From: an uncultured delta proteobacterium
GTDB lineage: Bacteria > Desulfobacterota > Binatia > UBA9968
NCBI GenBank assembly: GCA_963816145.1
Contig: CAWFJP010000013.1
Location: 128,001 to 192,000, forward strand
Direction: 5' to 3'
DNA: 64,000 nucleotides
Numbering within the stretch: position 1 is the stretch's first letter; each line of letters starts with the position of its first letter. Shown here one piece after another: positions 1,465 to 62,631 of the stretch. Both the position numbers and the translations under genes were made by a program. The notes beneath the pieces are model-generated. The model was given only the letters and a program-made list of their open reading frames with translations. It had not been told where the DNA came from and ran no database searches.

Positions 1465-1554
1465 CAGACCTTAACGCTGCTTTGCCGGACCTGCCCCCTG
1501 CTGCCCCTGAAGTAGCAAAGCAAAGATGCGATCCTGCTACCCTAACTGCAATCA

Positions 1555-3652: not shown

Positions 3653-3695
3653 CCTCGACGGCTTAGCCGACCTCTTTTCAATTCTTGACTAGTTT

Positions 3696-3820: not shown

Positions 3821-3945
3821 CACTCGCGGCATCCGCTGCCGCGATCGGAGTGCCGACAAAGAGTGACGTTGTATGACCGGCCTTCACCGCGAGCAACTCT
3901 TCAGCGAATGCGAAATTCTGCTGCGTTAGGCGCTTAGCCAATTCC
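3814..3945 (-). pseudogene. Relic of the AAA ATPase 3' region
   Basis: Aligns to 7072-7206 (ELAKRLTQQNFAFAEELLAVKA...SLFV vs DLAKRIKQQDFESAMEEVLAAKA...SLFV); joined to the amidohydrolase relic at a shared GCGCGCG. Confidence 0.75.
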
Positions 3946-4075
3946 CAGCGGCGGATTATTTCGTTCACGAGACCAAAGTCATGCGCTGTTATCGCCGTCG
4001 GCTTGCACTGACGACGCCTCGGTCCCAAAGCGCAAGTTGACGCGCCGGCACTCGCTGCGATTTGTGTCCGGCATC

Positions 4076-4282
4076 ATGGCGAAATACCTCCATCGATCCT
4101 GCCCCGAGTGCCGCGACTATTTCTGTGTTGAGGTATCCCAAAGAGCTAAGAGCGATGGCGAGTATTCCATTACCGGCTACTGTGTGGTGTGCGGCTATCA
4201 GCTCAATGGCTGGCGGGTAATTCCTGGCCGCAAGCAATCCGCGACCTTTTCCAGTGCCAAAAAGCTGGACGTAGCTCGGTAA
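4076..4282 (+). CDS. Small zinc-ribbon protein
   Basis: CPEC...CVVC pair in 68 aa; ATG at 4076 chosen as the likely start. Confidence 0.6.
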   Translation: MAKYLHRSCPECRDYFCVEVSQRAKSDGEYSITGYCVVCGYQLNGWRVIPGRKQSATFSSAKKLDVAR

Positions 4283-4340
4283 CTGCACGTTGGCGCGTCA
4301 CACATGTGCCCCCAGCGCCGCGTGGTCCAAGGCGTGATTT

Positions 4341-4988
4341 TCAGGCCGCCGGACGATTGTCCGCCTGCGGCGCCGTGAAAAACAATTCGTTCAATTGAGT
4401 GGGCTTGTGTCGTGCAAGGAAGGTCAGGTAACTGGAAATGCACGCTTCCTTATCAAACAACGATTGCATGAGCAGGGTTTGATCGCTGGTACCGTTCGCC
4501 TGGGTGAAACTTTGAACGTAATCAGCGATTTCAGGAAAGTTTTGTAATTCAGCAGGTTTGGCGACAATGGTTTTCAACTGCTCGAGCCGTGTCTTCATCG
4601 ACGCGGTTGTGATCAGGCGCGTCCAGTCGCGCGGCGGGTGGCTGCCGATGTCGCGCTGCAACAACCGAGCGATCCCGCAGTCTATATCGGGTGCCAGTGG
4701 GGGCTGCATCTCGCTGACAAAGGCAACCGGCTTGGGGTCGCTGATACTTGGCGCTTGAGGTCCGGTATCGGTCGCCAATTCTACGCGTGTCACTCGATTG
4801 AGTTGCCCTTGAAACGGCACGCCCCGCGACGACCACGCCTGCCCAGCAAGGTTAGGGTAGAGCGCGTTGCGAATTTTGTCGAAAAGATTGCCAATAATGG
4901 GAAATTTCCCGCGTCGCAGTGGCTGATGAATTCCCAATAATACACTAGCGTTGGGCATGATACCTTTGAAGTCGGACGGTGATTTCAT
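4341..4988 (-). CDS. Hypothetical protein (possibly a truncated fragment)
   Basis: ORF with RBS GAAGGAAG before ATG 4988; no recognisable motif. Confidence 0.5.
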   Translation of the reverse strand: MKSPSDFKGIMPNASVLLGIHQPLRRGKFPIIGNLFDKIRNALYPNLAGQAWSSRGVPFQGQLNRVTRVELATDTGPQAPSISDPKPVAFVSEMQPPLAPDIDCGIARLLQRDIGSHPPRDWTRLITTASMKTRLEQLKTIVAKPAELQNFPEIADYVQSFTQANGTSDQTLLMQSLFDKEACISSYLTFLARHKPTQLNELFFTAPQADNRPAA

Positions 4989-5482
4989 TGCGCTTCCTTC
5001 CAAAGAAATATTTCTGTTCTTATCGGTTACGATGGTGCAAACTCCGTATCTTAGGTGACGTTGCACGGAGCGCTGCGTCCATTGGCACGCTGCAAAAACT
5101 CCGCTGGCCGATACCTCGCAATTACTATCCACATTGCGGCAACCCGACTGATTGTCTCGGTTTTGGCTTTTTGTTAAGCAACGTCCGTACCAGAAGCATG
5201 TTCGCTATTGTAATCAGGTAAAAACCATTTCTTGGTTAAGTCCAGGTAAACTTTTGTTTACAGTTGGTGTATCCATTTGTTGTAGGATGGAGTCGTGGCC
5301 AGTCAGTCAATTGCCTTCAAAGAGTTGTCAGTTGGCTTTTTAGTCGCCAACGTTGTGCTGGCGCAGATGCTCATCGCGACGGGCATCATTAACGAACCGG
5401 AGTTTCAGAGAACGATAGCTGAGGAGCGAGCGAAGTATCAGCCGATGTTCAAATCGACACGACAATAGTCAAAGAGGATCAC

Positions 5483-6142
5483 ATGGCGACAGAAGTAGCA
5501 GAGATCGACAAGAAAAATCGGCGAGCTTACCTAAAACTTAGCTTCAGTGTAATTACCTGTGTTCTGGGGTTATGGGCCTCTGCCCCAGCGCAGCAGCCGA
5601 TTGCGCCTGTTGACTTCAGACCGTTCGTGGATGGGCGTAACTGGATCGTCCGCCAGCCGTTGGTTTACACGATCGGCGTGTCAAAGGACACGATTACTGT
5701 CCCGCCTGGATTCGTCACTGATTTCGCGAGTATCCCGCAGGTGCTTCATTCGCTGCTGCGCCAAAACGGCCTGTATTTGCTCCCCGCTGTAGTTCACGAT
5801 TATCTTTACTGGACGCAGAGCTGCTCGCGAGATCAAGCAGATCAGATTCTCAATTTGGGGATGATTGAAAACAAGGTTCCCGGCCCGCAGCGGCTCGCGA
5901 TCTACGGGGCGGTACGAGCCGCTGGCGGGTTTGCTTGGGACGCCAACGCAAAGGATCGCGCTGCAAAGCTGGTCCGCATACTGCCGCTAGATCGCTTGGA
6001 CATCGGGCCAAATAAACTTTGGCCAGATTATCAAAGGGAGCTGTCTAAAGCCGGTGTTCTCGAAGCGCCGTCGGCGGCGGTCTCACAGAACTTTTGCGCG
6101 CGTGGGGACTTGGCTACCAACGAAGCGTTGGGAACGAAGTGA
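5483..6142 (+). CDS. DUF1353-domain secreted protein
   Basis: VPPGFVTDFASIP...AVVHDYLY...ADQI motif; signal-peptide-like segment. Confidence 0.85.
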   Translation: MATEVAEIDKKNRRAYLKLSFSVITCVLGLWASAPAQQPIAPVDFRPFVDGRNWIVRQPLVYTIGVSKDTITVPPGFVTDFASIPQVLHSLLRQNGLYLLPAVVHDYLYWTQSCSRDQADQILNLGMIENKVPGPQRLAIYGAVRAAGGFAWDANAKDRAAKLVRILPLDRLDIGPNKLWPDYQRELSKAGVLEAPSAAVSQNFCARGDLATNEALGTK

Positions 6143-6708
6143 ACCAGAGAACGACACAGACCGGCTTGGCATTGCTTGGGATGTTGATGCTGACAATCGC
6201 CTGCGGCGCGAACGCGCCGGCTCCGCTGCACAACACAGCGGCCGACCTCGGCGGTACGTCTTGGCAGTTAGTCTGGTTTCACGGCGGCGACGACAAGTTG
6301 CTGACCCCCGACGATCCGGCGAAGTACACCCTCGCCTTCGGCGCCGACGGCAGTGTCAGCGCGCGGATCGACTGTAACCGTGGGCGCGGCACCTGGAAAT
6401 CTTCGGGACCGAGCCAGCTCCAGTTCGGTCCGCTCGCGCTCACTCGCGCACTGTGCCCGCCGGGTTCGCTCCATGATCGCATCGTCAAAGATTGGGAGTT
6501 TGTGCGGTCGTACATATTGAAAGATGGCCATCTTTTTCTGTCACTCATGGCCGATGGAGGGATTTACGAGTCGAGCCGATCGGTGGAGCAAAGGCGGCCA
6601 CGGCGGATTCCCGGACCTGGGGAACGACACTGTTTAATTTTGCCGCGCTTCGAGGGATCCCGGATGAACGTTCCCAGCGTGGTTCGAGGATCAGCGCGCA
6701 CTGAGTAG
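6139..6708 (+). CDS. META-domain (HslJ-like) lipoprotein with a probable frameshift near 6570
   Basis: GTG start overlapping the upstream stop; TIAC lipobox; LGGTSWQLV, DCNRGRG, LALTRALC; GGIYE is followed by a missing T (expected FEP). Confidence 0.78.
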   Translation: MNQRTTQTGLALLGMLMLTIACGANAPAPLHNTAADLGGTSWQLVWFHGGDDKLLTPDDPAKYTLAFGADGSVSARIDCNRGRGTWKSSGPSQLQFGPLALTRALCPPGSLHDRIVKDWEFVRSYILKDGHLFLSLMADGGIYESSRSVEQRRPRRIPGPGERHCLILPRFEGSRMNVPSVVRGSARTE

Positions 6709-6743
6709 TACTAAATCCTGACTTTTCAAATTTCGATCAGTGT

Positions 6744-6893
6744 CTACCCAACTATCTTCGGCCGATAAAACTCGATCGCATTCTTGTAAAAAACATTGGC
6801 TGCTTTTTATTCGCCCGAGGTTTCCAAGACCAGCAGGTAGTCGTTATCGAGATACGGCCCCGGCGCGCGGGTCGACGGCAGGTCGGTGCCGAA
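6744..6893 (-). pseudogene. Relic of an amidohydrolase 3' end (copy 2)
   Basis: Encodes FGTDLPSTRAPGPYLDNDYLLVLETSGE*KAANVFYKNAIEFYRPKIVG*; colinear with 8133-8282; internal TAA. Confidence 0.85.
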
Positions 6894-6968
6894 GCGATTC
6901 AGTGCGCGGTTCAGGGTTGCGACGTGGATGTGCGTTGTTTGCCGGGGCGTTATTCACGACCTCATAAT

Positions 6969-7973
6969 TCAATGCAGGAGCGCCAAGGCAACTGCCACGA
7001 ACGCTGTGATCAACGCGGTGCCGGCTAGCGCCAGCGCGATGAAAATTGCGCTGCGCCATTGCGGCTCCATCGCGCGCGCACTATCGGCATCGGCTACGTG
7101 AGTCTTGGTGTCGACGAAGAGCGACTGCTGCATGACCGCCTTGGCGGCGAGCACCTCTTCCATAGCGGATTCGAAATCCTGCTGCTTTATGCGCTTAGCC
7201 AAATCCGATCCCGGCTGAGCGGCCGCAAACGCGGCGGCCTTGAGAACCGCATTTTTGATATCGCCGCCGCTCACCGTGTAGCGCTCGGCGAGCTGCTGAA
7301 AATCCACATCCGACGCTAACGGGGTCTTCTTCGGGTGAATTTGCATCTCCCAGATGCGCGCGCGTTCTTTCGGTCCCGGGATCTCGAACAGTACATGGGC
7401 GCGGATGCGGCGCTCGAATGCGGGATCGAAATTCGCTGCCAGATTGGTCGCGAAAATCACGATGCCATTGAACGCCTCCAACTCGCGCAGGAGAACGTTA
7501 ACCGTCAAATTGCTTTCGCGTTCGTGCGGCAGCCCGGCGCCGGAGGAGCGGCGCATGGCGATCGCGTCTGCCTCGTCGAATAATAGGACGGCATTTTGCT
7601 CAGCCGCGGCGCGAAACGTGGCGACGATATTTTTCGGAGTCTCGCCGAACCACATCGACTCGGCCTCGGCATAGTTGACCACAAGAAGCTTCAAGCCGAG
7701 CTCATAGGCAATCGCTTCGGCGCAGATCGTCTTTCCCGTGCCCGGCTGTCCGGCAAAATTAAACGCCAGCCCGCGTCCCGAAGTATGCCGTTCGCCCAGT
7801 CCCCAGCGGTTAAAGATCAAGTGGTGATTGCGCACCTGCGCCAGCGCCTGTTCCAAGGTGCGGTGGGTTTGTGGCGCCAATACGACATCGGCCAACGTGC
7901 GCGCCGGTGTGACGGCTTCGACGACACGGCGCGAACCGAGGCCGGTAAAGAAAGACATCAGCGGACTAGCCAT
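6969..7973 (-). CDS. AAA+ ATPase with a C-terminal hydrophobic helix
   Basis: Walker A GQPGTGKT, Walker B LLFDEAD, ATN...DPAFERR; C-terminal AIFIALALAGTALITAFVAVALALLH. Confidence 0.92.
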   Translation of the reverse strand: MASPLMSFFTGLGSRRVVEAVTPARTLADVVLAPQTHRTLEQALAQVRNHHLIFNRWGLGERHTSGRGLAFNFAGQPGTGKTICAEAIAYELGLKLLVVNYAEAESMWFGETPKNIVATFRAAAEQNAVLLFDEADAIAMRRSSGAGLPHERESNLTVNVLLRELEAFNGIVIFATNLAANFDPAFERRIRAHVLFEIPGPKERARIWEMQIHPKKTPLASDVDFQQLAERYTVSGGDIKNAVLKAAAFAAAQPGSDLAKRIKQQDFESAMEEVLAAKAVMQQSLFVDTKTHVADADSARAMEPQWRSAIFIALALAGTALITAFVAVALALLH

Positions 7974-43319: not shown

Positions 43320-43481
43320 TCAGTCGCCGTCGCTCAGTTGCTCTTTGAGCTCGCGGCGCAACCCAGCTTTGGCGCGCTTACGCAAAACGTCTTTCTTGTT
43401 CTGCAAGATTTTCCCCGGCGGCGGCAGGTCTTTGCGGACTTTCGCTAGGCCGATGGGGATCTTTTTCGCCGCTGGACTCAA
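43320..43481 (-). CDS. Small basic protein (53 aa), not in the ORF track
   Basis: TTG overlaps the clpB stop (TTGA); [53 protein letters not shown]; ends just before the terminator. Confidence 0.65.
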
Positions 43482-46108
43482 TGCAGGGTCCTCTGCTCCA
43501 ACGTCTCGGTGCTTGCCGCCGGCTGACCGTGGGTGAACGCTAGCTCGTCGTCTTCGACCTCCACTTTCACGGTGTCGCCTTCCTTGAACTCCCCGGCAAG
43601 GATCTTAACCGCCAGCGGGTCCTGAATCAATCGCTGAATCGTGCGTTTGAGCGGGCGCGCGCCGTACACCGGATCGTAACCCTTTTCGGCGAGCAAGGCT
43701 TTGGCCGGCTCGGCGATCTCCAAGGCCATCTTGCGGTTTGCCAAGTTCTGGCGCAACCGCTTGAGCTGAATGTCGACGATCGACTTGATCTCGTCGCGGC
43801 CGAGGCTGCTAAAAATGATCGTCTCGTCGACCCGGTTCAAAAATTCCGGCTTGAAGGCTTCGCGCAGGGCGTTGCCGACGAGCTGTTCCATCTGCTTGCG
43901 ATCTTTTTTGCCGCCCAGTTCTTGTATGAACTGGCTGCCGAGATTCGAAGTCATGATGATGACGGTATTCTTGAAATCGACGGTGCGTCCCTGGCCGTCG
44001 GTCATGCGGCCGTCTTCGAGCACCTGCAAGAGCGCATTGAACACGTCGGGGTGGGCCTTCTCGATTTCATCGAAGAGCACCACGGAGTAAGGCCGGCGGC
44101 GCACCGCTTCGGTCAGTTGTCCGCCCTCATCATAGCCGACGTAGCCTGGAGGGGCGCCGATCAGCCGCGATACGGAGTGTTTTTCCATATACTCCGACAT
44201 ATCGAGGCGGACCATCGCCTGTTCGTCGTCGAAGAGAAACTCGGCCAATGCCCGGCAAAGTTCGGTTTTACCGACCCCGGTAGGTCCGAGAAAGATAAAC
44301 GAGCCGATCGGCCGATTCTGATCCTGCAGGCCGGCGCGGGCTCGGCGCACAGCATTGGACACGGCGATGATCGCATTTTCCTGGCCGACCACGCGGAGCT
44401 TCAACCGGTCTTCCATCTTGAGCAGCTTCTGCACCTCGCCTTCGAGCATCTTCGAAACTGGAATGCCGGTCCATTTGGCGACCACTTCGGCGATGTCCTC
44501 GGCGTCGACTTCTTCCTTGAGCATCTTTTGATGGGTTTGCAATTCGGCGAGTTTCCGATTGACGGCTTCGCTTTCTTTCTGCAGTTGGCTCAAGGTGCCG
44601 TAGCGCAGCTCGGCGGCCTTGTTGAGATCGCCTACCCGTTGAGCTTTTTGTTCTTCGATTTTGGTCGCTTCGATCTTTTCTTTGATCGCGCGCAGCTGTT
44701 GGATCGCCGCTTTTTCATTCTGCCAATGGGCTTTGAGGCCGGTCGAAGTCTCTTTCAAATTGTGAATTTCCTGTTCGAGGTGAGCCAAGCGCTCCTTCGA
44801 GGCTTTGTCCTCTTCACGCTTGAGCGCCTGGCGTTCGATTTCCAGCTGCATGATTTTGCGCTCGACCTCGTCGATCTCGATGGGCATGCTGTCGATTTCA
44901 ATTCTCAATCGCGAGGCTGCTTCATCGATTAAATCGATGGCTTTGTCCGGCAAGAAGCGGTCGCTGATATAGCGGTGCGACAACGTCGCCGCGGCGATGA
45001 TCGCCGGGTCGGTAATGCGCACGCCATGATGGACTTCGTAGCGTTCCTTCAAGCCGCGCAGGATGGCGATGGTGTCTTCAACCGAAGGCTCGCCGACGTA
45101 GACTTGTTGAAAGCGCCGTTCCAGCGCCGGATCCTTTTCCACTCGTTTGCGGTATTCGTCCAGGGTTGTCGCCCCGACGCAGCGCAGCTCGCCGCGCGCC
45201 AACGCCGGCTTTAACATGTTCGACGCGTCCATGGCGCCTTCGGCCGCGCCGGCGCCAACCAGCGTGTGCAGCTCATCGATGAACAACACGATCTGGCCGT
45301 TGGCTTCGGTGACTTCTTTCAATACGGCTTTGAGCCGGTCTTCAAACTCGCCGCGAAATTTTGCCCCGGCGACCAGGGCGCTGAGGTCCAGAGAGATCAG
45401 CTTTTTGTCCTTCAATCCTTCGGGCACATCGCCGTTGACGATGCGCAACGCGAGGCCTTCGACGATGGCGGTTTTGCCGACGCCCGGTTCGCCGATCAGC
45501 ACCGGATTGTTCTTGGTGCGGCGCGACAACACTTGGATGACCCGGCGAATTTCATCGTCACGGCCGATCACCGGATCGAGCTTGCCCTTGCGCGCCAGGT
45601 CGGTGAGGTCGCGGCCGTACTTTTCCAACGCTTGATATTTTTCTTCTGGATTCGGATCGGTGATGCGCTGGGAGCCGCGAATGCTGACCAGGGCGCCGAG
45701 AATTTTATCCCGGGTCGCGCCTAGCTCTTTGAGAACTTTACCGGTTTCACCTGTGTCTTGCACCATGGCGAGGAGCAAATGCTCGGTGGAAACATAATCG
45801 TCTTTTAGTGTTTCCGCTTCGGCTTCGGCGCTTTCGATGATTTTCTTGAGCCGTGGCGTGATATAGCTTTGCCCGCTGGTGCCGGTCACTTGGGGCAGGC
45901 GGTCCAGGGCCTTTTGCAGCCGGTCGGTCAACTGGGTCAGCGGCACGCCGAGTTTTTGCAGCAACGACAAGACCACCCCTTCCTTCTGTCCTAACAGTGA
46001 AAAAAGCAGGTGTTCGGCGTCGAGGGCCTGGTGGTTGCGCTTGTCGGCAAGGGATTGGGCTTCGCGCAATGCTTCTTGGGATTTGGTGGTTAGTTTTTCT
46101 AAACGCAT
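43478..46108 (-). CDS. clpB: Chaperone/disaggregase ClpB
   Basis: Two AAA modules ([16 protein letters not shown]), long M-domain with [16 protein letters not shown]. Confidence 0.97.
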
Positions 46109-46266
46109 ATATTTCTCCGCTGCTGAGACCTCGTCGCAATGGCGAGAACTCCGCTACCTGCAATCCTGAGTTTAGCAAAGGACTTAGTCTTGTCGCCTAC
46201 TTACGAAATCGGGATTTCTCGGTTTCGTGTCGGCTTGACAGTTACGACAACGTCTCTGTTCGTCGG

Positions 46267-46295
46267 AAGTTAAGCATCGTTGGGCGGAGTGTCAA
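46267..46295 (-). promoter_or_regulatory. sigma70-type promoter for clpB
   Basis: Minus strand TTGACA-N17-TAACTT, about 160 bp upstream of the ATG. Confidence 0.55.
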
Positions 46296-46355
46296 GAAAA
46301 CTATCGGCACTGGGAGTAGCCGCAACCCGGGGGAAATTTAAGCGCTTGCCGGCCG

Positions 46356-47138
46356 CTAGTTTCGCGGCTTGGTTGGATCGAAGTATTCGAACATCGGCGC
46401 CGGTGAACTTGCCGCAGCCGGCGCCGATTCGGGCCGGTCAATGACAATTCCCCGGTCCTGCTGCAGCGTGAACTTATGTTTTACGGGTGTGATGGCGACA
46501 CCGCGCATTTTCTTAACGGTCACGGTGCGCTCATAGCCGGCTGCGCTTTCGGTCATCTTAAAGATTAACACGCCAGCGGCGAGATGCTCTTCGATCCCAA
46601 CAGTGGCACTCTGCGCGCCGTCGGGGCAGCGCTGCGCGGTGAAAAGGTTGGTGACGCCGATTTGAGTTTGCACCAATTGAATCAGCGAGCGCGCTTGGTC
46701 CTGTGGTGGACTGGTCACGTCCGGGGGGAGGATGAACGGTGTTACCGGATCGATAATCAGCAGCGTCGCGCCCAACCGTCTGACATAGTTGCCAAGATCG
46801 GCGACGATTTTTTGTGGATCGATGCCTTTTTCGCCGCCGCCGCGGGCGCCGAAATAAGGCGCGGCGTCGAGGACGATCAATTGTTTGTCTTGGATATAGG
46901 GTTGCAGGTTCCAGCCCAAAGCTGCGGCGGACTCCAAGATCTCCGAAGGCCGCTCATCGACGGTAACGTAGACCGCCTTATCGCCCTCTTTCAGGCGAAT
47001 TGCGACGAACTGCAAACAGGCGATGGTTTTGCCCGTGCCCGCTTCGCCGGCGAACAGATACGTGCGTCCGCGGTTGAACCCACCATTCAGCAATGTATCC
47101 AAGCCGGCGATGCCGGTGGAGATTCGCTCGTTGCTCAT
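46356..47138 (-). CDS. Single-domain KaiC-like (RecA-superfamily) ATPase B
   Basis: ISTGIAGLDTLLNGG, GEAGTGKT, YVTVDE, IIDP, KKMRG; start at MSNERI. Confidence 0.9.
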   Translation of the reverse strand: MSNERISTGIAGLDTLLNGGFNRGRTYLFAGEAGTGKTIACLQFVAIRLKEGDKAVYVTVDERPSEILESAAALGWNLQPYIQDKQLIVLDAAPYFGARGGGEKGIDPQKIVADLGNYVRRLGATLLIIDPVTPFILPPDVTSPPQDQARSLIQLVQTQIGVTNLFTAQRCPDGAQSATVGIEEHLAAGVLIFKMTESAAGYERTVTVKKMRGVAITPVKHKFTLQQDRGIVIDRPESAPAAASSPAPMFEYFDPTKPRN

Positions 47139-47161
47139 AGGGAAAGATGTCCCGCGACCGG

Positions 47162-47890
47162 CTAACGTGTCGGCTGAATCACTAAACCTTCGCCCTTGAC
47201 GATGTCGAACTCCAATTGCGTCGGCTTGACGTTGGTGCAGCGCATTTTTTCGACGATCAGGCTGCGCGCCAGCTGGCCATCGTTGCGCCAAATCATTTCC
47301 AGGACGATGGCCCCCGCGACCATATATTCTTCGACGCCATGCATGCTGCGCTCGCCGGTTCGCGGCACGGCGTAGGAAGTGAGAACGTTGGTGGTGGCCA
47401 TCGAAGAACGCAGCAATTTGATCAGTAAGCGGCTCTGATCCTGGATCCGTGTTGCGACGTCGCGCAATAGGACAAACGGTCCGGCGGGATCGAGGACCAA
47501 ACGCTCGGCACTGACTTGATTGACGAAGGCGGCCAAGTCGCTCACCGCTTTTTGCAGGTCGATCTGGCGTTCGCGGCCGGTACCGGGAAGCGAACTCAAG
47601 TAAGTCCCGGCGTTAAGGATCGCCAACTCTTTGGTCTCGACATAGCGCTCGAAGTCCCAACCGAGGGAAGCCGCCTGTTCGAGGATGTCCAGCGGGCCTT
47701 CGTCGGCGGTAACGAAGACACCTTTCTCACCGCGCGCCAGTCCCTCGGCGAGAAACTGCAGGGCGAAGATGGTCTTGCCGGTTCCCGGCTCGCCGGTCAC
47801 AAGAATCGAACGACCCTTGGGAAAGCCGCCTTCGATCAATGGGTCCAAGCCCTTGATCCCACTGGTTACCCGTTCTGTTTGTATCATCAT
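47162..47890 (-). CDS. Single-domain KaiC-like (RecA-superfamily) ATPase A
   Basis: SGIKGLDPLIEGGFP, GEPGTGKTIFALQF, FVTADE, VLDP, VEKMR. Confidence 0.92.
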   Translation of the reverse strand: MMIQTERVTSGIKGLDPLIEGGFPKGRSILVTGEPGTGKTIFALQFLAEGLARGEKGVFVTADEGPLDILEQAASLGWDFERYVETKELAILNAGTYLSSLPGTGRERQIDLQKAVSDLAAFVNQVSAERLVLDPAGPFVLLRDVATRIQDQSRLLIKLLRSSMATTNVLTSYAVPRTGERSMHGVEEYMVAGAIVLEMIWRNDGQLARSLIVEKMRCTNVKPTQLEFDIVKGEGLVIQPTR

Positions 47891-47965
47891 CGTCCTTCGC
47901 TTTGCTGCTGTTTTTGCGTCACGGTTCGATCGCCTTGCGGTTGCTACGGCATATTCTCGAAGGTG

Positions 47966-50900
47966 CTATGAGCGCCAGCGCCGTTTCCAGCCAAAACCGC
48001 TTTGCCAACGCCGTCCTGACGGCGCTGGATAGCTGGTATCGTCGCCGGAGCGGACCGCTTTGGCCAGGTCATCGAGTTTGCGCAATTGTTCCCGCTGTGC
48101 CTCGGTCAAGTTAGGTTCGCCCATGACAAATGCGCCGTCGACCGGTGCGGCTGGGTGTTCCTTCTCCGCAAGCTGTTGGCGCAAGGATTCGATTTGTTGG
48201 CGATGTTCTTGCTCTATCCCGGCAATGATCGCCTGGCGCTCTTCCAGAGCCCATTCTTTTTGACTGAGTTCGGCTTGCAGCAGGGCCAATTGCGCCTGGT
48301 ATTCCGTACGCATGCGCTCGGCATCGTCGCTGGCACTGCTTTCGGCTTGAATGGCGTTTGTCTGCAGCTGCGTGAAGCGCTCGCTCAAGCTGTCCAGTTC
48401 ACCTTTAACCCGCACCAACTCGTCGTTGCGGTTATGCAGAATTTGATTGCGTTCTTGGGCTTCGCCGATCAGCCGGTCGATCTGGCTACGGAGCGCCTGC
48501 TCGATGTCGGAACTAATGCCGACGCGGTCGTGAAGCTGGGCGGCGTTATCGGCGAGCTCGTGGCTGAGCGCATCGACCCGCGCTTGATATTCTTGGCGCA
48601 GTTGTTCGGTCCGGCTGTTGGCGCTTAGTTCACCCTGCTGCAACGCGGCTTGCAGTTCTTCGACGCGGCCTTGCAATAGGGAGATTTGCGCTTGCGCCTG
48701 GTCGATTTCCCGCCGCCGTTCTTCACTGGACCTTTGAATTTCGCTCAGATTGGCTTCAAGTTGTTCAACCTGGCTGCGATGACGCGCGGCCAGGTCATCG
48801 ATGGCCGATTGTTGTTTCATTGCGGCCGCGGATTTCTGTTGTAGCTCGTCGCGCAGGCTCGCGAGGTCGCTCTCCAGACTAGATTTGGCCTGGCTGATTT
48901 CGCGCGCTTCGCTTTCGGTGCGCGCGGTGAACGATTCCAACTGCATGATGCGATTCTGAACCGCCGTCATTTCCGCGCGGAGGCGGTCGAGTTCATCCTC
49001 ACGGCTTTGCAGCGCCGCCGTGCGCGAGTGCATTTCGTTATTGAGGCGGGTGATCTCGGCGCGCAGGCTTTCCTCGACGTTGGCCCGTACCGCGCCGCTC
49101 TTGGCCAACTCCGCCGACTTGGCGGCCAGCAAGGCGTTGGCGCTGTCCAAACGAACCGCGTATTCCTGGCGAATCTGTTCAACTTGGCTAGCGCCGGCAG
49201 CCTGGGTTTGCCGCAGTTCGGCACGGAGTTCTTCGACCTGCTGCTGCGAGGCGTCAGCTTGACTGAGAGCTTGCTCCAGTTCGCGAGTCTGCCGTTCGGT
49301 GACCGGTTGTGACTCGCTTAGCCGCGCTTCCAATTTTCGGATTTGCTCGCGGTGGACCTGTGCGAGGTTTTCGACACTCGCCTGCTGCTGTGCCAGCGAC
49401 CAGGCTTTTTGCTGCAACTCGCCGCGCAGCTCAGTGAGTTCGGTTTCCAAGGCTTTGCGCACCTCCGCGAGTTCGCTGGCAGCCTCCGCCTTGCTCCTGT
49501 CATGGAGCGTTTCGATCTCTTTGAGAGAACTGCGCAATCGGGCGTGATCGGAATCGATCGCCGCCTTGGCGGCTTCACTGCTTTGCAGAAGCTCTTCAAT
49601 TTCGGCTGTACGGTTTTTCGCTTCTTGGAGTTCGCCACGCAGGCCGGCGTTGGCGCCGCGTGCCTGGTCGAGCTGAACCTCCAACGCGGTCTGGGCGCGG
49701 GAGAGCTCTTCGCGTGCGGCGCTTAACTGAGCGATCTGGTTGTTGTGTTGGGCCTCGGTGTTTTGCCAGAGGCCCAGAGCCTGCGCATAATGGTCGTCTT
49801 TTTCGCTGAGCTGCTCGCTCAGTTGACTGACGGTCGTTCTTAGGTCGCCGATTTCGTTAGCCCGGCTGTCGGCCAACAACTGTTTCTCGGCCAATTGTAG
49901 CTGGAGCTCGTTGACCCGGTTGGACAGTTGTTCGCTCTGACCGGTGGCGCTTGCGCGCAAGCCTTCGATCTCGTTATCCTTTTGTCTGAGCTCGGCTTCG
50001 AGGGCTTCACGGCTCGTGGCGAGCTCGGCATGGGCTTGGCGTACTTCGTCGCCGGCGCTCGCAGCAGAGCTGCGTTCCTGGGCCAGCTGCTGGTGCAGCG
50101 TGGCGATTTCCACGCCCAGGCGCGCTTCGAGGTCAGCGAAAGCGCGTTCACGCTCAGCGACTTGTAACCGCAAGTTTTCAACTTGCTGGGACAGCTGTTC
50201 GGTTTGTTTTGCAGTGTTTGCGCGCAGGCTGTCGATTTCGTTATCTTTGAGTTTGAGCTGAGCGTCGAGTCGTTCGCGGGTTGCATTGAGCTCAGCATGG
50301 GATTGTAGAAGCTCCTTGCTAGCCGTTGTCGCGCTGTTGCGTTCTTGCGCCAGCTGCTGGTGCAGCGTGGCAATTTCCACGCCCAGGCGCGCTTCGAGAT
50401 CGGCGGCGCTCCGTTGACGCTCAGCGAGTTGCAATCGCAAGTCGTCAACCTGCTTGGCCAGCTCTTCGGTTTGGCCTGCGGCGTTTGCGCGCAGGCTGTC
50501 GATTTCGCTGTCTTTGACTTTGAGCTGGACGGCGAGTGCTTCACGGGCTGCCGCGAATTCGGCTTGGCGTTGAACCAGCTCTTCCTGGGCGTGACCGGCG
50601 GCGCTCCGTTCTCGCGCCAATTGCTGGTGTAGCGCCTCAATTTCTGCGCGCAAGCGCGCGTCGAGGTCGGCGACGTGGCGCTCACGCTCGGAAAGTTGTT
50701 GCGCCAACTCGCCAACACGGTGTGACAGCTGCTCGGTTTCCTTGCTGGCGCTTGCGCGCAGATCGTCAATTTCGTTTTCTTTTTGGGCCAGCTGGGCCGC
50801 GAGTTGTTCGCGCGTCGCGGCGAGCGCGGCGTGAGCTTGGCGTACTTCGTCATTGGCGCTTGCAGCAGCGCTGCGTTCTTGCTCCAGCTGCTGTTGCAGG

Positions 50901-52291
50901 GTGGCGATTTCCGCGCCTAAGTTTGCTTCGATTTCACCGATGGCCCGCTCTCGCCCGGCCAGCAGGTACTCCTTCTGTGCCAAGTCGGCGCGCAGGCGAA
51001 TGAGATCGTTTTCCAGTTGCTGCCGGGCGCTATCGAGCAGACTGATGTCGGATTGAGCGCGTTCCAAATCAACGATGCGGCTTTGCAGGGCAGCGGTCTC
51101 GGCGCGGTGGCTTTGCAGCTCCGCTTCATGGGCGGTCGAGGCTTCATGCGCGCGGGCGAGTTCCTGTTGCAGCGCCTGAATGCGCCCGTGCAAGGCGAGC
51201 TCGACGGCGGTTACCGCTTCGTAGCGGTGCGTCAGTTCTTTTTCCTTGACCTCAACTTCATGCTGAAGATTCGCCACCTCTTCGGCCAGGGCGCGGCGAA
51301 TACTATCGATCTCTGCGCCGGCGGCCGCGGCCTGGCGGTGCGCCAATTCTAGATCGGCAACTCGCTGTTGGAGGGCGGCGATCTGTGTCCCGGCGGCGCG
51401 CAATTCGTCGTCACGAACCGCCAGATAGGCTTGTTTTTGCTCCAGCTCGTTGCGCAGTGTGGCGATCTCGCTTCTCAGGCCGCGCTCGATTTCCAACAAT
51501 GAGGTCTGGCTCTCCACGACCGTGCGGTCGCGTTCGGCCAGGGTGGTGCGCAGGCTCACCAATTCGCTTTCAAAACGGCCACGCGCCTGTTCGAGTTCGC
51601 GCGCCGCGTTCGCTTGCAGCTCATCTTGGAGCGCTTCGAGCGACCCCAGATGCTGGCGCAGCGCCGCGATCTCTTGTTGAGCCTTGCGCAACTCATCGGC
51701 GGTGCCGAAGGCGTTGGCTTGGTGCTCCGCGACTTGGTTTTCCAGCCGCTGCAACTGTTCGCGCAGGCCGCTTTCGATTTCCCGCCCGGCCAGTTGCTGT
51801 TGGTGAAACTCGCGTCGGTTTTTCGCCAATTCTTGATTGAGAGCAGCGATCTCCGCGCTAAGGCTTTCCCTGATCGCGTTGGTCTCGCGGGCGGCGCGCA
51901 CGGCCGCGTTATTCTCGCCTTCGAGCTGGTTGATGCGGTTTTGCAGCGCGATGATTTCGCTACTGGAGCGCTGGAGTCCGGCCTCATGTCCGGATAGGAG
52001 CTGTTGTTTCTCGTTGAGCTCGCGCTGGAGCTGCTCGACGGTTGAGCTCAGATTGCGGTCGACGGCGACGACTGGGCGCTCTTGCAGTTGTTTTTCTTTG
52101 GCGGCGAGATCGGCGCGCAGGATTGCCAGCTCGGATTCATAGTTCTCATGAAGGCGCGCTTTTTCATTCGCCGCGGTGGCCTGCGCTTGCTTGAGGTAGA
52201 GCTCCATCAGGCGAGTCTGCGCCAACAGGATGTCTATCTCGTTTAGCAGAAGAATCGCCGGATCGCTCTTTTGATATTTGGGTGTGTCCAT
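47966..52291 (-). CDS. Giant coiled-coil protein (1441 aa) with internal repeats
   Basis: E/Q/L/A/R-rich heptad-like sequence almost throughout, with no Walker motifs or TM segments; basic/aromatic tail GRRWQSGFGWKRRWRS. Confidence 0.9.
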   Translation of the reverse strand: MDTPKYQKSDPAILLLNEIDILLAQTRLMELYLKQAQATAANEKARLHENYESELAILRADLAAKEKQLQERPVVAVDRNLSSTVEQLQRELNEKQQLLSGHEAGLQRSSSEIIALQNRINQLEGENNAAVRAARETNAIRESLSAEIAALNQELAKNRREFHQQQLAGREIESGLREQLQRLENQVAEHQANAFGTADELRKAQQEIAALRQHLGSLEALQDELQANAARELEQARGRFESELVSLRTTLAERDRTVVESQTSLLEIERGLRSEIATLRNELEQKQAYLAVRDDELRAAGTQIAALQQRVADLELAHRQAAAAGAEIDSIRRALAEEVANLQHEVEVKEKELTHRYEAVTAVELALHGRIQALQQELARAHEASTAHEAELQSHRAETAALQSRIVDLERAQSDISLLDSARQQLENDLIRLRADLAQKEYLLAGRERAIGEIEANLGAEIATLQQQLEQERSAAASANDEVRQAHAALAATREQLAAQLAQKENEIDDLRASASKETEQLSHRVGELAQQLSERERHVADLDARLRAEIEALHQQLARERSAAGHAQEELVQRQAEFAAAREALAVQLKVKDSEIDSLRANAAGQTEELAKQVDDLRLQLAERQRSAADLEARLGVEIATLHQQLAQERNSATTASKELLQSHAELNATRERLDAQLKLKDNEIDSLRANTAKQTEQLSQQVENLRLQVAERERAFADLEARLGVEIATLHQQLAQERSSAASAGDEVRQAHAELATSREALEAELRQKDNEIEGLRASATGQSEQLSNRVNELQLQLAEKQLLADSRANEIGDLRTTVSQLSEQLSEKDDHYAQALGLWQNTEAQHNNQIAQLSAAREELSRAQTALEVQLDQARGANAGLRGELQEAKNRTAEIEELLQSSEAAKAAIDSDHARLRSSLKEIETLHDRSKAEAASELAEVRKALETELTELRGELQQKAWSLAQQQASVENLAQVHREQIRKLEARLSESQPVTERQTRELEQALSQADASQQQVEELRAELRQTQAAGASQVEQIRQEYAVRLDSANALLAAKSAELAKSGAVRANVEESLRAEITRLNNEMHSRTAALQSREDELDRLRAEMTAVQNRIMQLESFTARTESEAREISQAKSSLESDLASLRDELQQKSAAAMKQQSAIDDLAARHRSQVEQLEANLSEIQRSSEERRREIDQAQAQISLLQGRVEELQAALQQGELSANSRTEQLRQEYQARVDALSHELADNAAQLHDRVGISSDIEQALRSQIDRLIGEAQERNQILHNRNDELVRVKGELDSLSERFTQLQTNAIQAESSASDDAERMRTEYQAQLALLQAELSQKEWALEERQAIIAGIEQEHRQQIESLRQQLAEKEHPAAPVDGAFVMGEPNLTEAQREQLRKLDDLAKAVRSGDDTSYPAPSGRRWQSGFGWKRRWRS
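49880..50950 (-). repeat. Four tandem 267-bp (89-aa) intragenic repeats
   Basis: TGGC(G/A)ATTTCC-like anchor recurs at 50101, 50368, 50635 and 50902; peptide unit ADLEARLGVEIATLHQQLAQER...KDNEIDSLRA...EQLS. Confidence 0.9.
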
Positions 52292-52370
52292 AAATACCGC
52301 CCGCGCTTAGCCAAACGCTGGGTAAATCCTCATCATTGGATGTACAGCTGTCGCTTCGCGCAAGAAGCAT

Positions 52371-52386
52371 AGCCAAAAACATGCCA
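52371..52386 (-). promoter_or_regulatory. Putative sigma54 (-24/-12) promoter
   Basis: Minus strand TGGCATG-TTTT-TGGCT (GG-N10-GC), 80 bp upstream of the coiled-coil gene ATG. Confidence 0.6.
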
Positions 52387-52410
52387 TTGATAGAAACTAG
52401 AGTCGTTAAA

Positions 52411-52423
52411 AATCAGATAGTTA
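52411..52423 (+). promoter_or_regulatory. Putative IHF-binding site
   Basis: AATCAGATAGTTA matches WATCARNNNNTTR in an AT-rich patch just upstream of the -24 element. Confidence 0.55.
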
Positions 52424-52638
52424 TGATTATCCCGAAAGAGCAATTTAGCAAAGACTACTGCAAGACAGATGATTTCTGGACATATTCGGGAATTGCTGGA
52501 CAAAAATGTCTTCGTGGGAGTCTGAACGCCTTCGTTTCTGTTCGGATGACGCCGGCGGCAAAATCGCGCATTCATAAGACCGTATTGTCCCATGCAGGGA
52601 TTTGAAATGCCGCTAGGCTGTCGTTAGAATCCGGCGTC

Positions 52639-58844: not shown

Positions 58845-59402
58845 ATGACTCCGCAAGAACAATCTCTCATCACCGGTTGCATTCGCGGCGACAAAGCGGC
58901 GTGGGATGCTTTCGTGCAACAATATTCCCCTCTTGTTTATCACACGATTCGAAAGACCTTCGTCACCTATCACGCTGAATCGACCTCGGATTTGGTCGAC
59001 GACCTGTTTCAAGATTTTTTTCTCGCCATCGTTGCCGACGAGTTCAAAAAATTGCGGCAGTTCCGCGGCGATAACGGCTGCACGCTGGCAAGCTGGCTCC
59101 GGATGGTCGCCGCTCGTTTGACAATCGACGAGCTGCGAAAGCGGGTCACTTCACGTGCCGACGCACCGCTCGAATTGGCGCAACCCGATGACACAGACTG
59201 CGCGGCGATAACGGACGAACAGCTAAATGCGCTTAGCCAAGCGATCGAGTCGCTGCCGCCAAAAGACCGGCTGCTGATTCAATTTTGCTTTCGCCAAAAC
59301 CTTTCCCCGCCAGATGTTGCGAAGCTGCTAAAGACATCGGTCCCTGCAGTCTACACCCAGAAAAGCCGCATTCTCAGCAAACTCCGCGCGATACTTAAAT
59401 AA
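58845..59402 (+). CDS. ECF sigma-70 factor
   Basis: GDKAAWDAFVQQY, DDLFQDFF, SWLRMVAARLTIDELR (region 2); LPPKDRLLI...VAKLL...VYTQKSR (region 4). Confidence 0.9.
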   Translation: MTPQEQSLITGCIRGDKAAWDAFVQQYSPLVYHTIRKTFVTYHAESTSDLVDDLFQDFFLAIVADEFKKLRQFRGDNGCTLASWLRMVAARLTIDELRKRVTSRADAPLELAQPDDTDCAAITDEQLNALSQAIESLPPKDRLLIQFCFRQNLSPPDVAKLLKTSVPAVYTQKSRILSKLRAILK

Positions 59403-59414
59403 GTTACCGTCTCG

Positions 59415-59445
59415 GTAAGATTTTCGCGTCTATCCGTCTATTTCC
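59415..59445 (+). promoter_or_regulatory. Putative ECF promoter, copy 1
   Basis: GTAAGA-N14-CGTCTATTTCC just after the sigma gene stop. Confidence 0.55.
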
Positions 59446-59652
59446 ACAGTCGAGCTGTACAAACCTTTTGTCGGCTTTTGTGATCGTGCGTTTGTTCCAA
59501 CGCGCATGATGGAAGAGGGCAGAACAAGAAGCCTCCGATTTTTGGTGGTGAATCATGAGAGTTTAGCCTGACTCAAGACTTGGCCGCGCGCGGCTCCTGC
59601 GAATCGAAATATCGAGAATGGGCAGAGCAACGTCGGGAAAGGATGATTTAGT

Positions 59653-60276
59653 ATGAAGCGTCTTTTGATGTTGATGCTCTTGGTTGGACTGTTAGGCAGT
59701 GAGGCTTTAGCTCAGGAGTCCGCCCCGGCACCTGTGTTTAAAGACGGCGATACCTGGCGAATCAATATTTCACGGATGGGCCAGGTCAGCAGTACGACGG
59801 ATCAAAACGAAGGTATCTATGAGCTGGTTTTCACCCAAGGCAAAGTAAAGGTGTTTGCGGTGGATGGCGATCAGAAAAAGGAGTTGGAAATCCAGCCGGA
59901 CAGCACCGCGGAGACATTGTTGGGCGTAGTCGGCAAGAGTGAGCGGCGTCCGGATCTCAAATTCCCGCTCACGATGGGAAAAAAATGGGATTATCAGTTC
60001 ATCAATAAACCAGCGGGTGCTCGTCAAGAGCAGCGCAGGGCGGTTGAAGTCGCCGTTGTCGGACAGGAGCAAATAACGGTGCCGGCCGGCTCATTCAAGG
60101 TATTTAAGCTGGTCAGAACCGAACAGTGGTCTGTTGGTCGGACTGGCGTAAACACCAGCACATCGACGTTCTATTATAGCCCGGAGACCAAGAGTATCGT
60201 TAAACGCATCACCGAGAGCTCCAACAATCCGGGTATCTTGACAAATGATCTGTTGAAATTCACGCCGGGAAGCTAG
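59653..60276 (+). CDS. Secreted beta-rich hypothetical protein
   Basis: Signal peptide; APAPVFKDGDTW, FPLTMGKKW, ITVPAGSFKVFK, YYSPE. Confidence 0.85.
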   Translation: MKRLLMLMLLVGLLGSEALAQESAPAPVFKDGDTWRINISRMGQVSSTTDQNEGIYELVFTQGKVKVFAVDGDQKKELEIQPDSTAETLLGVVGKSERRPDLKFPLTMGKKWDYQFINKPAGARQEQRRAVEVAVVGQEQITVPAGSFKVFKLVRTEQWSVGRTGVNTSTSTFYYSPETKSIVKRITESSNNPGILTNDLLKFTPGS

Positions 60277-60294
60277 AATCGAGAAAGGAAAAAA

Positions 60295-62631
60295 ATGATC
60301 TATAAACGCTGGTTACCTGGCCGACGAGTCACCAAGTTGATCGTGGCAGCGGCTCTATTAGTTTTAACCCCATACGGTTTGACCAGCGCCGCTTACGGCG
60401 CTTCGCCAATCATATCGAACGAAAGAGTTCAGCTTAGAACCCTGGCCGATGGAACCGTTGGCGTAGTTATCTCTGCTACGGTTGAGGACGCCGATGGGAT
60501 TGCCTCACTCAAGGTCGCCATCGAGCGGCCGGGCGTGTTTGGCCCTTTTCCCCTTCAGTCAGGCCTGTATCTTTCACCAGGTGACACCCCAACGCTGGAT
60601 GGCTTTAGCGTCACAATCGGTCCTGAGTTTATCCCCGCAGCACAAAGGGCGGGCAACTACCTCATAACTGTGAACGACGGCGTCACGACAGTTTCAACGA
60701 CGGTGACGCTGCCCGCCGGGCTTGTTGAACTTCCCGCGGGCGGGCCAACCGGTGTTGATACGAGCACGGGGCTACTCCGCCCTACCATCTCGATTCCTCC
60801 CATTCCTGGGGCGGCAAGCTATCGGATTTCGATCCAGAACGACTCCGATTCGACTATTCAGAGCTTCGATGGGGTGGCGGGTGCCGACCTATCGCCGGTA
60901 CCAAGCATACGGGTTGGAAGCAACATTCTCGAAGCGGGGAAATTTTACCGATTCAACATTGATGCATTTGACGCCTCGCAGGTCGCTCTGTCTGACCGCC
61001 GGAGCGAAAGCGCGGATATCTGTTACGATCCAGCCACCGGTAATACCAACATCCCCTGCATTGTTCAGAGGGACGTGCACCTTGTTACTCAAGTCGACGG
61101 CAGCGCAGTGATCCAGGCGCTTGGCGGTGTGCTGGACCGGGACGATCTGGAGTCTCTCAAGAACCCGTGCAAGTGGTTGACGGATCAAACCGGAACGAAT
61201 CTGTGCCTAACGATGCCCGCCCCTCCACCGCCTCCCTTTACCGTTACGCGTGGGGCATTCGGGCCGTTCGCGCTCACGGCGAGCCCGTTGATCACTTTGG
61301 ACCTTGATTCAGCGGTGAGAGATAATTTTACGAGCGCGCGAAACCCGCTCGATGCGACTGAAATTCCCGTGGACCAAAGGGCTGGGGATTATATTTTCAG
61401 GGCGCAAGACTCGACCGGTAACGTCGTTACCGCAACACGAGCATTCCCGGCAGGTCTAGTACCTATGCCCCCCGCCGGTCCTGTGACGATCGATACTTCA
61501 TCGGGGGTGTTCACTCCGACTGTAAGTATGCCACCCGTTCCAGGGGCGACGCATTACAGAGTGATCGTTTTCAACGACACGGATTCCTTTCGTATTAACT
61601 TCGACAACCTCCCGGGTGGCACATTATCCGAGTCACCCACGATGAAGTTGTTCGAAGGCGTCATCGAACCAAATAAGGCCTATCGAATTCACATGGACGC
61701 GTTCAACGCCGCGACCTTCCAAACAAGCACTGTACGCAGCCGCAGTGGATCTCAAGTCTATGACCCGTCCAACCTCGATGCCGACGGTGACGGCATTCAA
61801 AGCACCATCGACGGTCTGTTCGCGGGCGGGTTTGTCGATCAAAGCGCCGCTCCGTCAAGCAATTTTACAAATCAACATCTAGGGGGAACTGTTTCCGGTT
61901 CTATTATCGACCGCGCGGATTTAAAAGTCGTGGTCGTCGCTCCCACGGACCCTGCCAACGGGTTGAGACTAGGGGCCACCGGCGGCTCGGGAACCGCGAC
62001 GGTCAACGCTTGTTTGCCGACAGTCGATATAAGACTCCGGGACCGGTCGTCCGCAGCCATCGACTGCGGATCGCTCGAAGTCGACGTGCTCGAAGGGGTG
62101 GTCGAACTCCGACTGGGTAACGGCAGCGTTGTGACCGCACCCGCGGGCGCGGCATTGACGATCAACGAGCCGTCCCCTGGGCAATATTCCGTCGAAAATC
62201 TAGCGTTGAGTTTTGTTCCCGTGACGCTGACAGTTCAAGGAGTATCGATCCCGGTCAACCCCGGGACCGCTTCGGTATCGATCGTCGACGCGAAAATCGA
62301 AATCAGCCCCTTGCTGCCCAATATTATATTCCCAAAATTTAAACTACCCGTGTTTGTCGCCATTTTTTCCGGCATTGGTTTCAACGCGCCGGTAGAAGTC
62401 GATCAGTCCACTGTCACGTTCGGCAGGACTGGGTTGGAGGCCAAGTCAAAACAATGCTGGAAGTTGGACCTGAACCGAGATCGCAAGACCGATCTGCTGT
62501 GCGCTTTCGCTACTCAGGAAAGCGGCTTTCAGTCTGGCGACAAGGTTGGTCTACTCAGAGGTAAGACCTTTGCTGGCAAACTGATTCAGGGTAGTGATCG
62601 CGTTAAAATCATCTCGGGAATCAGAAAATAA
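60295..62631 (+). CDS. Large secreted protein with a tandem duplicated domain and Ca-binding-like DxDxDG motifs
   Basis: Signal peptide; two homologous units of about 220-240 aa; DADGDG; C-terminal DQSTVTFG...DLNRDRKTDL. Confidence 0.85.
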   Translation: MIYKRWLPGRRVTKLIVAAALLVLTPYGLTSAAYGASPIISNERVQLRTLADGTVGVVISATVEDADGIASLKVAIERPGVFGPFPLQSGLYLSPGDTPTLDGFSVTIGPEFIPAAQRAGNYLITVNDGVTTVSTTVTLPAGLVELPAGGPTGVDTSTGLLRPTISIPPIPGAASYRISIQNDSDSTIQSFDGVAGADLSPVPSIRVGSNILEAGKFYRFNIDAFDASQVALSDRRSESADICYDPATGNTNIPCIVQRDVHLVTQVDGSAVIQALGGVLDRDDLESLKNPCKWLTDQTGTNLCLTMPAPPPPPFTVTRGAFGPFALTASPLITLDLDSAVRDNFTSARNPLDATEIPVDQRAGDYIFRAQDSTGNVVTATRAFPAGLVPMPPAGPVTIDTSSGVFTPTVSMPPVPGATHYRVIVFNDTDSFRINFDNLPGGTLSESPTMKLFEGVIEPNKAYRIHMDAFNAATFQTSTVRSRSGSQVYDPSNLDADGDGIQSTIDGLFAGGFVDQSAAPSSNFTNQHLGGTVSGSIIDRADLKVVVVAPTDPANGLRLGATGGSGTATVNACLPTVDIRLRDRSSAAIDCGSLEVDVLEGVVELRLGNGSVVTAPAGAALTINEPSPGQYSVENLALSFVPVTLTVQGVSIPVNPGTASVSIVDAKIEISPLLPNIIFPKFKLPVFVAIFSGIGFNAPVEVDQSTVTFGRTGLEAKSKQCWKLDLNRDRKTDLLCAFATQESGFQSGDKVGLLRGKTFAGKLIQGSDRVKIISGIRK

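Follow-up and report, generated by a model that had tools for sequence, protein, structure and literature searches.

A coiled-coil rod gene and KaiC-like ATPase genes behind a predicted sigma-54 promoter in an uncultured lineage of the Binatia

Single-domain KaiC-like ATPases occur widely among bacteria and archaea, but almost none of them has a known partner or output. The locus analysed here belongs to an uncultured delta proteobacterium (GTDB lineage Desulfobacterota, Binatia, UBA9968) and lies on a stretch of 64,000 nucleotides (nt) of assembly GCA_963816145.1 (contig CAWFJP010000013.1, positions 128,001 to 192,000; G000:C13:128001-192000 in our numbering), which is referred to below as the window; the genome comprises 7.8 Mb in 31 contigs and is 99.5% complete. 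Three minus-strand genes encode a long coiled-coil protein (CC, the rod) and two paralogous ATPases of the KaiC family (A and B). An earlier note, drawn up from the DNA letters alone, had proposed that the two ATPases form a hetero-oligomer that controls a cytoskeleton-like or polar filament, and had recognised no described system in the trio. None was found in the family libraries or the literature searched either, and no published account of such an operon came to light, subscription journals being mostly outside the coverage of that search.

The closest functional precedent comes from the archaellum, where FlaH (ArlH) binds FlaX (ArlX), a membrane-anchored coiled-coil scaffold, at the C-terminal domain of the latter, as described in the accessible part of PMC5019145. 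The likeness is one of arrangement, a single-domain KaiC-like ATP-binding protein on a coiled-coil scaffold, and extends to context in that a paralogous unit of the present genome adjoins chemotaxis genes. It is not one of sequence, as the ArlH models (NF052589) score A at 41.4 and B at 38.3 bits against a cut-off of 215. The scaffolds are not homologous, FlaX having about 250 amino acids (aa), an N-terminal transmembrane (TM) helix and a ring-like assembly, whereas CC has 1441 aa and no TM helix. Partners of the ArlI/ArlJ type are absent from the CC-A-B locus. A retains a full catalytic set, whereas no ATP hydrolysis by FlaH is seen in vitro.

KaiC-like ATPases have also been described as archaeal signal-transduction hubs, with a KaiC-REC fusion in Methanosarcinaceae (accessible part of PMC5847659, citing Makarova et al. 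2017). Comparable surroundings are found here, as sister genera carry a REC-KaiC fusion together with a REC-histidine kinase, and CheA and REC genes lie beside the paralogue. The archaeal fusion has KaiC followed by REC, whereas the bacterial one has REC followed by KaiC, and a coiled-coil partner goes unmentioned for the archaeal hubs in the accessible part of that source. In sequence, the best match of A and B over the whole domain is the CI domain of KaiC, with which they have in common Walker A, Walker B, the second catalytic Glu, the EE sensor pair and the KxR arginine; KaiC has two domains where A and B have one, and its first catalytic Glu is Asp in both. KaiC structures (PDB 8zn5, 1tf7, 4tl6 and others) are among the best matches. 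Three archaeal proteins of function unknown, PH0186 (2zts), PH0284 (2dr3) and SSO2452 (2w0m), are single-domain, of the same size, and align with A over its full length (2.4e-38, 4.8e-29 and 1.2e-29 respectively), although the scores for their NCBIfam hypothetical equivalogs stay under cut-off (136 versus 248 bits). We know of no rod partner for any of the three.

The explanation that fits the CC-A-B locus best, and which is put forward tentatively, is a KaiC-type nucleotide switch acting on a membrane-tethered rod, and not a clock. CC, A and B would form one enhancer-dependent (sigma-54) operon. A would most likely assemble into a ring, bind ATP and hydrolyse it slowly, as KaiC CI does, because its fold is of the KaiC-CI type and its catalytic residues are strongly constrained. 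CC would be an alpha-helical rod without interruption, about 1300 residues long, serving as a scaffold or tether. Short Arg/Trp-rich peptides such as RRWQWR bind membranes, and it is because of this property that the Arg/Trp-rich tail of CC, judged by its composition, may attach the protein to the cytoplasmic membrane at its inner face. The ATPase would be a nucleotide-dependent switch on the rod, as ArlH is on ArlX, by analogy and not by homology, and B would be an optional second ATPase with a docking-like C-terminal peptide of its own. We infer physical contact between rod and ATPase; in each of the two paralogous units the rod gene stands directly ahead of the gene for a KaiC-like ATPase (26/32 and 15/20 loci), and both units have a sigma-54-type element with a TGTCCA box some 90-95 nt ahead of it.

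To judge from its sequence, the region upstream of CC has the layout of a standard enhancer-dependent promoter, with a -24/-12 element that reads TGGCATG-N4-TGGC, two enhancer-like boxes, and a conserved AT-rich stretch between the boxes and the -24 element (Table 1). The window contains one such double box where 0.09 would be expected, and boxes of the form [TC]GTCC[AGC] recur near -115/-95 in 29 of 34 related loci, CC-less ones included, at a spacing of 20 nt or, at a few loci, about 10 nt closer. Related loci are otherwise taken here as the 32 of the A core clade (67-89% identity) whose upstream side is complete, out of 60 flanking regions compared with their open reading frames (ORFs) labelled against the window proteins. 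A sigma-54-type element is found in all 32 and precedes A where CC is missing; at 20/20 CC-bearing loci, TGGCAY-N5-TNGC occupies the equivalent place, 14 of them with the strict pattern and the rest with a variant -12. The same pattern was not found at 10 loci with REC-KaiC or with distant A-like genes (L095, L097-L099, L102-L104, L111-L113). The genome has one rpoN gene (Sigma54_DBD, 1.2e-62). A lone genome-wide match to the sigma-54 pattern would be unsurprising in itself, since 14 were found against 18 expected; two of the 14 precede the two rod genes.

One other site in the genome has a GTCC...TGTCCA pair followed 60-130 nt on by a sigma-54-type element (G000:C4:577226-578087). It precedes a gene for a 219-aa membrane protein with an N-terminal hydrophobic segment. 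The site may belong to the same regulon, or the match may be due to chance.

The second rod-ATPase unit lies on contig C4 of the same genome, where a 615-aa coiled-coil gene stands directly ahead of a 238-aa KaiC-like gene, 47-49% identical to A, the pair being divergent from a REC gene and near cheA. A sigma-54-type element precedes the rod gene by 81 nt and is itself preceded, 91 nt further up, by a TGTCCA box. Of 20 loci of this paralogue in other genomes, 15 have the rod gene ahead of the ATPase gene, 19 have the sigma-54-type element, and 11 have cheA within the fetched stretch. The paralogous rod family (CC2) has its own conserved ends, DVLYGWLVGRAAADLGLAQA... and ...SGRWKVR, and a bridging locus (L093) has a CC2-like rod at the clpB-linked site. 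The neighbourhood comparison places the linkage of rod and ATPase genes beyond chance, the two sharing one conserved sigma-54-type promoter and recurring as two paralogous copies both in this genome and throughout the family.

The association of ATPase and coiled coil that the earlier note had anticipated holds in the core clade and for the cheA-side paralogue, but not in more distant genera. There, A-like genes are paired with a REC-KaiC fusion and a hybrid kinase: in several genera the interval between aminotransferase and clpB contains genes for an A-like ATPase, for a REC-KaiC fusion with Walker A intact, DD for the DE of A and no KMR, and for a REC-HisKA-HATPase hybrid kinase. Because sister genera carry these genes at the same place, the ATPase lineage is embedded in two-component signalling, and the rod with its sigma-54 promoter is one variant on this pattern. 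The trio of A-like gene, REC-KaiC and kinase at L098, L099, L102, L104 and L106 is followed by clpB at some of these loci and by ABC transporter genes at others.

A and B belong to PF06745 with 193 bits (6.4e-57) and 168 bits (2.6e-49) against a cut-off of 26.6, each in one stretch over 228-229 of 231 profile positions, and the best structural match of both is the N-terminal (CI) half of KaiC in 8zn5 (7.5e-48 and 4.4e-43). Over 35 A-type sequences, GTGK of Walker A, D63 of the D-E pair, the Walker B Asp, the EE pair and K-M-R are invariant, and E64 is nearly so; Walker A reads GxxGTGKT in both ATPases, and D-E replaces the E-E of KaiC CI. B keeps the motif set at lower overall conservation (31 sequences), and ends in a conserved peptide, [FL]E[YF]F[DEQ][LP]xK, behind a variable linker. 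The motifs singled out in the earlier note (Walker A, the D-E pair, a Walker B ending in DP, EExxxAG and KMR) are present and invariant or nearly invariant across both sets. In a tree of 99 KaiC-like domains, built with a quick method and rooted at the midpoint, A forms one clade with the ATPase of the paralogous unit and that of L093, B a separate sister clade, and the REC-fused domains a distant outgroup.

A circadian KaiC oscillator is ruled out by the single domain, the lack of a KaiB match in the genome and the lack of the CII Ser/Thr pair. KaiB (PF07689) gave no match in the 99.5%-complete genome, with a positive Synechococcus control, which extends the earlier observation of no kaiB from the window to the whole genome; KaiA was not searched. 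The NCBIfam KaiC equivalogs stay below cut-off (A 135 and B 120 versus 408 bits). Having no CII domain, A and B therefore have no phosphosites; their EExxxAG stretch contains no Ser/Thr pair, and it is CI, not CII, that gives the best alignment.

CC matches no Pfam or NCBIfam family at cut-off, and the models of SMC, Rad50, ASRP, LmuB and JetC hit coil segments only, the best SMC score being 76 bits against a cut-off of 567. A, E, L, Q and R make up 63% of its residues, a 3.5-residue hydrophobic periodicity exceeds the 95th percentile of shuffles in 42 of 50 segments of 56 aa, and residues 74-1379 include a single proline. CC is taken to have no TM helix because its peak 19-residue hydropathy, 1.11, is far under the 2.08 of the CNNM membrane protein used as control. 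The earlier description of CC as having no head, hinge or TM helix agrees with this maximum and with the absence of any family over cut-off. The 89-aa tandem repeat within the rod is recent.

Conservation of CC is confined to both ends, the rod varying from 315 to 1685 aa across loci. A profile of the N-terminal end found 109 protein clusters among 1.84 billion representatives, nearly all at the very N-terminus, in proteins ranging from fragments up to 1564 aa. Among 401 genomes of the phylum the N-terminal motif matched the window's own gene alone; that sample includes one other genome of the family, and so bounds the range of CC and gives no frequency. An ESM Atlas look-up of residues 1-90 returned no match of at least 0.9. 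AlphaFold2 models the N-terminus as the start of a single long helix from residue 11 (pLDDT >90 at 11-60), and at the C-terminus a rod that stops near residue 1378, a linker, a short helix at about 1397-1414 and a 27-residue non-helical end. The last 15 residues fit RRWxxGFxWKRRW[KR], and a weaker motif, FV[LM]GEPxLT, lies about 45 residues ahead of the end. In this genome the Arg/Trp-rich tail type is confined to CC and its paralogue. Complex prediction of A with the N-terminal 89 residues of CC gave no answer for or against contact (score 0.00, mark 0.32) in a run without controls.

Table 1. Features of the CC-A-B locus and the adjoining clpB gene, in window coordinates.
Feature	Position	Strand	Remarks
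Enhancer-like boxes GACATTTTTGTCCAG and ATATGTCCAGAAAT (predicted)	52472..52510	-	TGTCCA cores ~115 and ~95 nt upstream of -24
-24/-12 sigma-54-type element TGGCATGTTTTTGGCT (predicted)	52371..52386	-	95 nt ahead of CC start codon
CC, coiled-coil rod	47966..52291	-	1441-aa ORF
CC N-terminal 52 residues LLLNEIDILLAQTRLMELYLKQAQATAA	52136..52291	-	64% mean column identity
Tandem 267-bp (89-aa) repeats within rod	50082..50782	-	2.2-2.6 copies, 76-78% matches
CC Arg/Trp-rich C-terminal tail RRWQSGFGWKRRWRS	47969..48013	-	W, K, R, W invariant in 23/23 sequences
ATPase A, single-domain KaiC-CI-type, conserved operon core	47162..47890	-	242-aa ORF, PF06745, 73-91% identical in related core-clade loci
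ATPase B, paralogue of A with conserved C-terminal peptide	46356..47138	-	260 aa from ATG, PF06745
Separate clpB promoter candidate TTTCTTGACA, 17 nt, TAACTT	46267..46298	-	putative downstream limit of operon
clpB	43478..46108	-	247 bp beyond B

Across the 32 related loci, CC of at least 300 aa is present at 26, of which 16 have one uninterrupted ORF with both conserved ends and 10 a CC that is split, interrupted by masked bases or without one of the ends; three loci retain a short remnant (L072, L073, L081) and three have no room for CC (L060, L079, L088). Five further loci are cut by contig ends, each with a C-terminal part of CC. B is present at 24 loci and absent from 8. A is the constant core of the operon, and rod and B are frequent but dispensable. 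The intermediate forms are varied. Genus g23 has two short rod forms, one of 348 aa with the N-terminal motif and without the tail, at loci also without B (L066/L069), and one of 315-391 aa with the tail and without the N-terminal motif (L080/L087). At L057 (G075, positions 1-7190, the same as L001), in a close relative, CC is reduced to its last 255 aa, and about 7 kb of other genes stand in place of the part upstream; an integrase-like ORF among them suggests that a mobile element inserted into this rod gene. In one genome a further A gene (L091, G090:C51; 72% identical) lies on a separate contig among different neighbours and has a sigma-54-type element.

As far as sampled, the CC-A-B operon is restricted to one uncultured lineage. 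The ATPase subfamily occurs in 92 of 123 genomes of the GTDB order to which the genome belongs, and by family in 88/89 (f1), 3/5 (f2) and 0/28 (f3); the order tallies take in four unpublished genomes (G052, G055, G074 and G093), which the locus-level claims do not. Outside the order, five of about 400 sampled genomes of the phylum match at E <=1e-25, all at about 30% identity and four of the five within frames of at least 500 aa. Close relatives of A (75-91% identity) are found in records of metagenome-assembled genomes with discordant organism labels, the commonest name being Candidatus Binatia, and 762 proteins with generic names match A at E <=1e-20 in environmental protein collections.

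Several observations weigh against a switch on a membrane-tethered rod. The five-fold variation in rod length counts against a fixed geometric role. A is conserved equally without the rod, being 74-80% identical at the 6 loci where CC is absent or a remnant, and a single genus holds both the CC-less G040 and G041 with a CC of 1641 aa. The tail contains two glycines and shows no clear amphipathic pattern; nucleic acid or the acidic surface of a protein would be just as plausible a ligand. Homology between the two rod families is no more than putative, with a shared architecture and one weak profile match of their N-terminal motifs over 17 columns (hhalign probability 7.6%, E 0.0046). No bacterial enhancer-binding protein gene was found among the window genes scanned (26.5-62.6 kb).

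The filament of the earlier note, in which CC would be an intermediate-filament-like or polar structure assembled under control of an A/B hetero-oligomer, is considered unlikely, although it has points in its favour. The heptad rod of CC is long and is flanked by short, conserved ends without heptads, and the ATPase genes lie within the same operon. Crescentin, FilP and Scy have a head-rod-tail layout like that of CC, and by comparison with them the conserved ends could mediate head-to-tail assembly; internal repeats in the rod are a further likeness, but CC has no Pfam or NCBIfam sequence match of the crescentin/FilP/Scy type. To our knowledge none of the three is found with KaiC-like ATPase genes or behind sigma-54 promoters. 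Against a filament, the rod is repeatedly lost or truncated and ranges from 315 to 1685 aa, and A and B do not hold up as the obligatory pair that such control had been thought to involve, B being missing at 8 of 32 loci and the paralogous unit having one ATPase.

Of similarly low probability is a KaiC-type signalling operon in which nothing couples the products physically and CC is a fast-evolving, dispensable passenger on a shared promoter. The equal conservation of A where CC is missing points in this direction, as do the sister-genus A-like genes that are paired, at the same spot, with the REC-KaiC fusion and REC-histidine kinase; such a reading also fits the two-component context reported for archaeal KaiC-like ATPases in the accessible part of PMC5847659. 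A mere passenger is, however, hard to square with two paralogous rod-ATPase units that keep gene order and promoter type over many genera, or with the clear constraint on both rod ends.

A wider version of the tethered-rod switch can be imagined, although it is rather improbable as a whole: one enhancer-binding regulator would control both units through the TGTCCA box, and the system would be a bacterial counterpart of ArlX/ArlH in which an ATPase ring sets a tethered rod of adjustable length, one copy being wired to a Che pathway as a hitherto unrecognised output device of sigma-54 and chemosensory signalling, with a role in positioning, motility or envelope-associated assembly.

The neighbouring clpB gene raises the question of a stress or protein-quality-control module in which CC, A and B would work with the ClpB disaggregase, which is improbable. 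The gene follows the ATPase genes at 31 of 32 related loci and likewise in more distant genera, and KaiC-like proteins have been reported to raise stress resistance in environmental Pseudomonas (accessible part of bioRxiv 10.1101/2022.01.26.477890). The earlier suggestion that clpB has its own candidate promoter is borne out by a block, TTTCTTGACA...TG.TTA..TT, which is conserved at >=80% over the 32 clpB upstream regions aligned, distant genera included, and clpB was rejected as an operon member on this ground. The whole recD2-CNNM-glyoxalase-aminotransferase ... clpB-MFS-MFS block is syntenic, so the adjacency of A and clpB is an inherited order among unrelated genes and no evidence of function. 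Moreover, L076 has the operon without clpB, and a second full-length ClpB-like gene, 64% identical to that of the window, is located elsewhere in the genome (G000:C23:73527-76103). The clpB leader from promoter to start (46109-46266) measures about 160 nt and is similarly long in L056, L077, L082 and L083; in most other relatives it is about 15-30 nt, the extra stretch being an insertion.

An SMC-like or defence system akin to Lamassu or Wadjet, in which the rod would act on DNA, is very improbable: SMC/Rad50/MukB, LmuB and JetC have long antiparallel-capable coiled coils as CC does, and PADLOC LmuB (4.1e-13), JetC and NCBIfam SMC/Rad50 models match parts of CC, with A weakly matching mad8 (2.2e-6), but all the matches to CC lie inside the coil, CC has no head ATPase or hinge, nuclease and effector domains are missing, B has no PADLOC match, and the locus is vertically inherited in fixed synteny and not mobile. 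An SMC/Rad50/MukB-like protein was rejected for want of any SMC_N, hinge or zinc-hook Pfam match, both ends being modelled as plain helix or coil, and the PADLOC systems (Lamassu, Wadjet, MADS) for want of a full gene set and of catalytic-domain matches.

The ORF calls agree with the three co-oriented genes first described, separated by 75 bp (CC-A) and 23 bp (A-B), with 247 bp between B and clpB. An alternative 311-aa frame for B, starting at TTG, overlaps A and is not needed. No terminator-like site was found within the CC-A, A-B or B-clpB gaps (17 overall versus 16.9 in shuffles), and a sigma-70 consensus scan found none on the minus strand near the genes (2 overall versus 2.0 in shuffles). 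The metagenome runs that hold the stretch come from wetland, soil and sediment. In four RNA libraries, short low-depth contigs cover CC, A, B and the 5' region, and one contig bridges the A-B junction (258 nt, 1 mismatch). These contigs are a weak hint of transcription of CC, A and B, because they carry no strand and such libraries can hold DNA. One contig (52034-52400) extends upstream past the predicted start, and may be DNA carry-over or an antisense signal. The high RNA depth over clpB consists of 90-95% alike sequences from other organisms, and gaps in contig cover carry no information.

Upstream of CC and divergent from it lie genes for an aminotransferase, a glyoxalase-family protein, a CNNM/CorC transporter and recD2, and two MFS transporter genes lie 3' of clpB; the remaining scanned part of the window (26.5-62.6 kb) holds metabolic and transport genes. 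At 58845-62631, a gene for an ECF-type sigma factor (58845-59402) is followed by genes for proteins of 207 aa and 778 aa without a Pfam match at 1e-5.

The partner candidates at this locus are unusually explicit, namely a two-ended rod, a second ATPase with a tail peptide, and a sigma-54 architecture common to two units. They offer small, concrete targets in a 50-residue helix, a 15-residue tail, an 8-residue peptide and a 6-bp DNA box, alongside naturally occurring rods of many lengths and genomes that, being without CC or without B, amount to natural knock-outs. As the organisms are uncultured, tests need heterologous systems. If the rod is not membrane-tethered and ATPase-controlled, the locus would be a lineage-specific signalling operon of limited reach; if it is, the principle of ArlH on ArlX would extend to bacteria.

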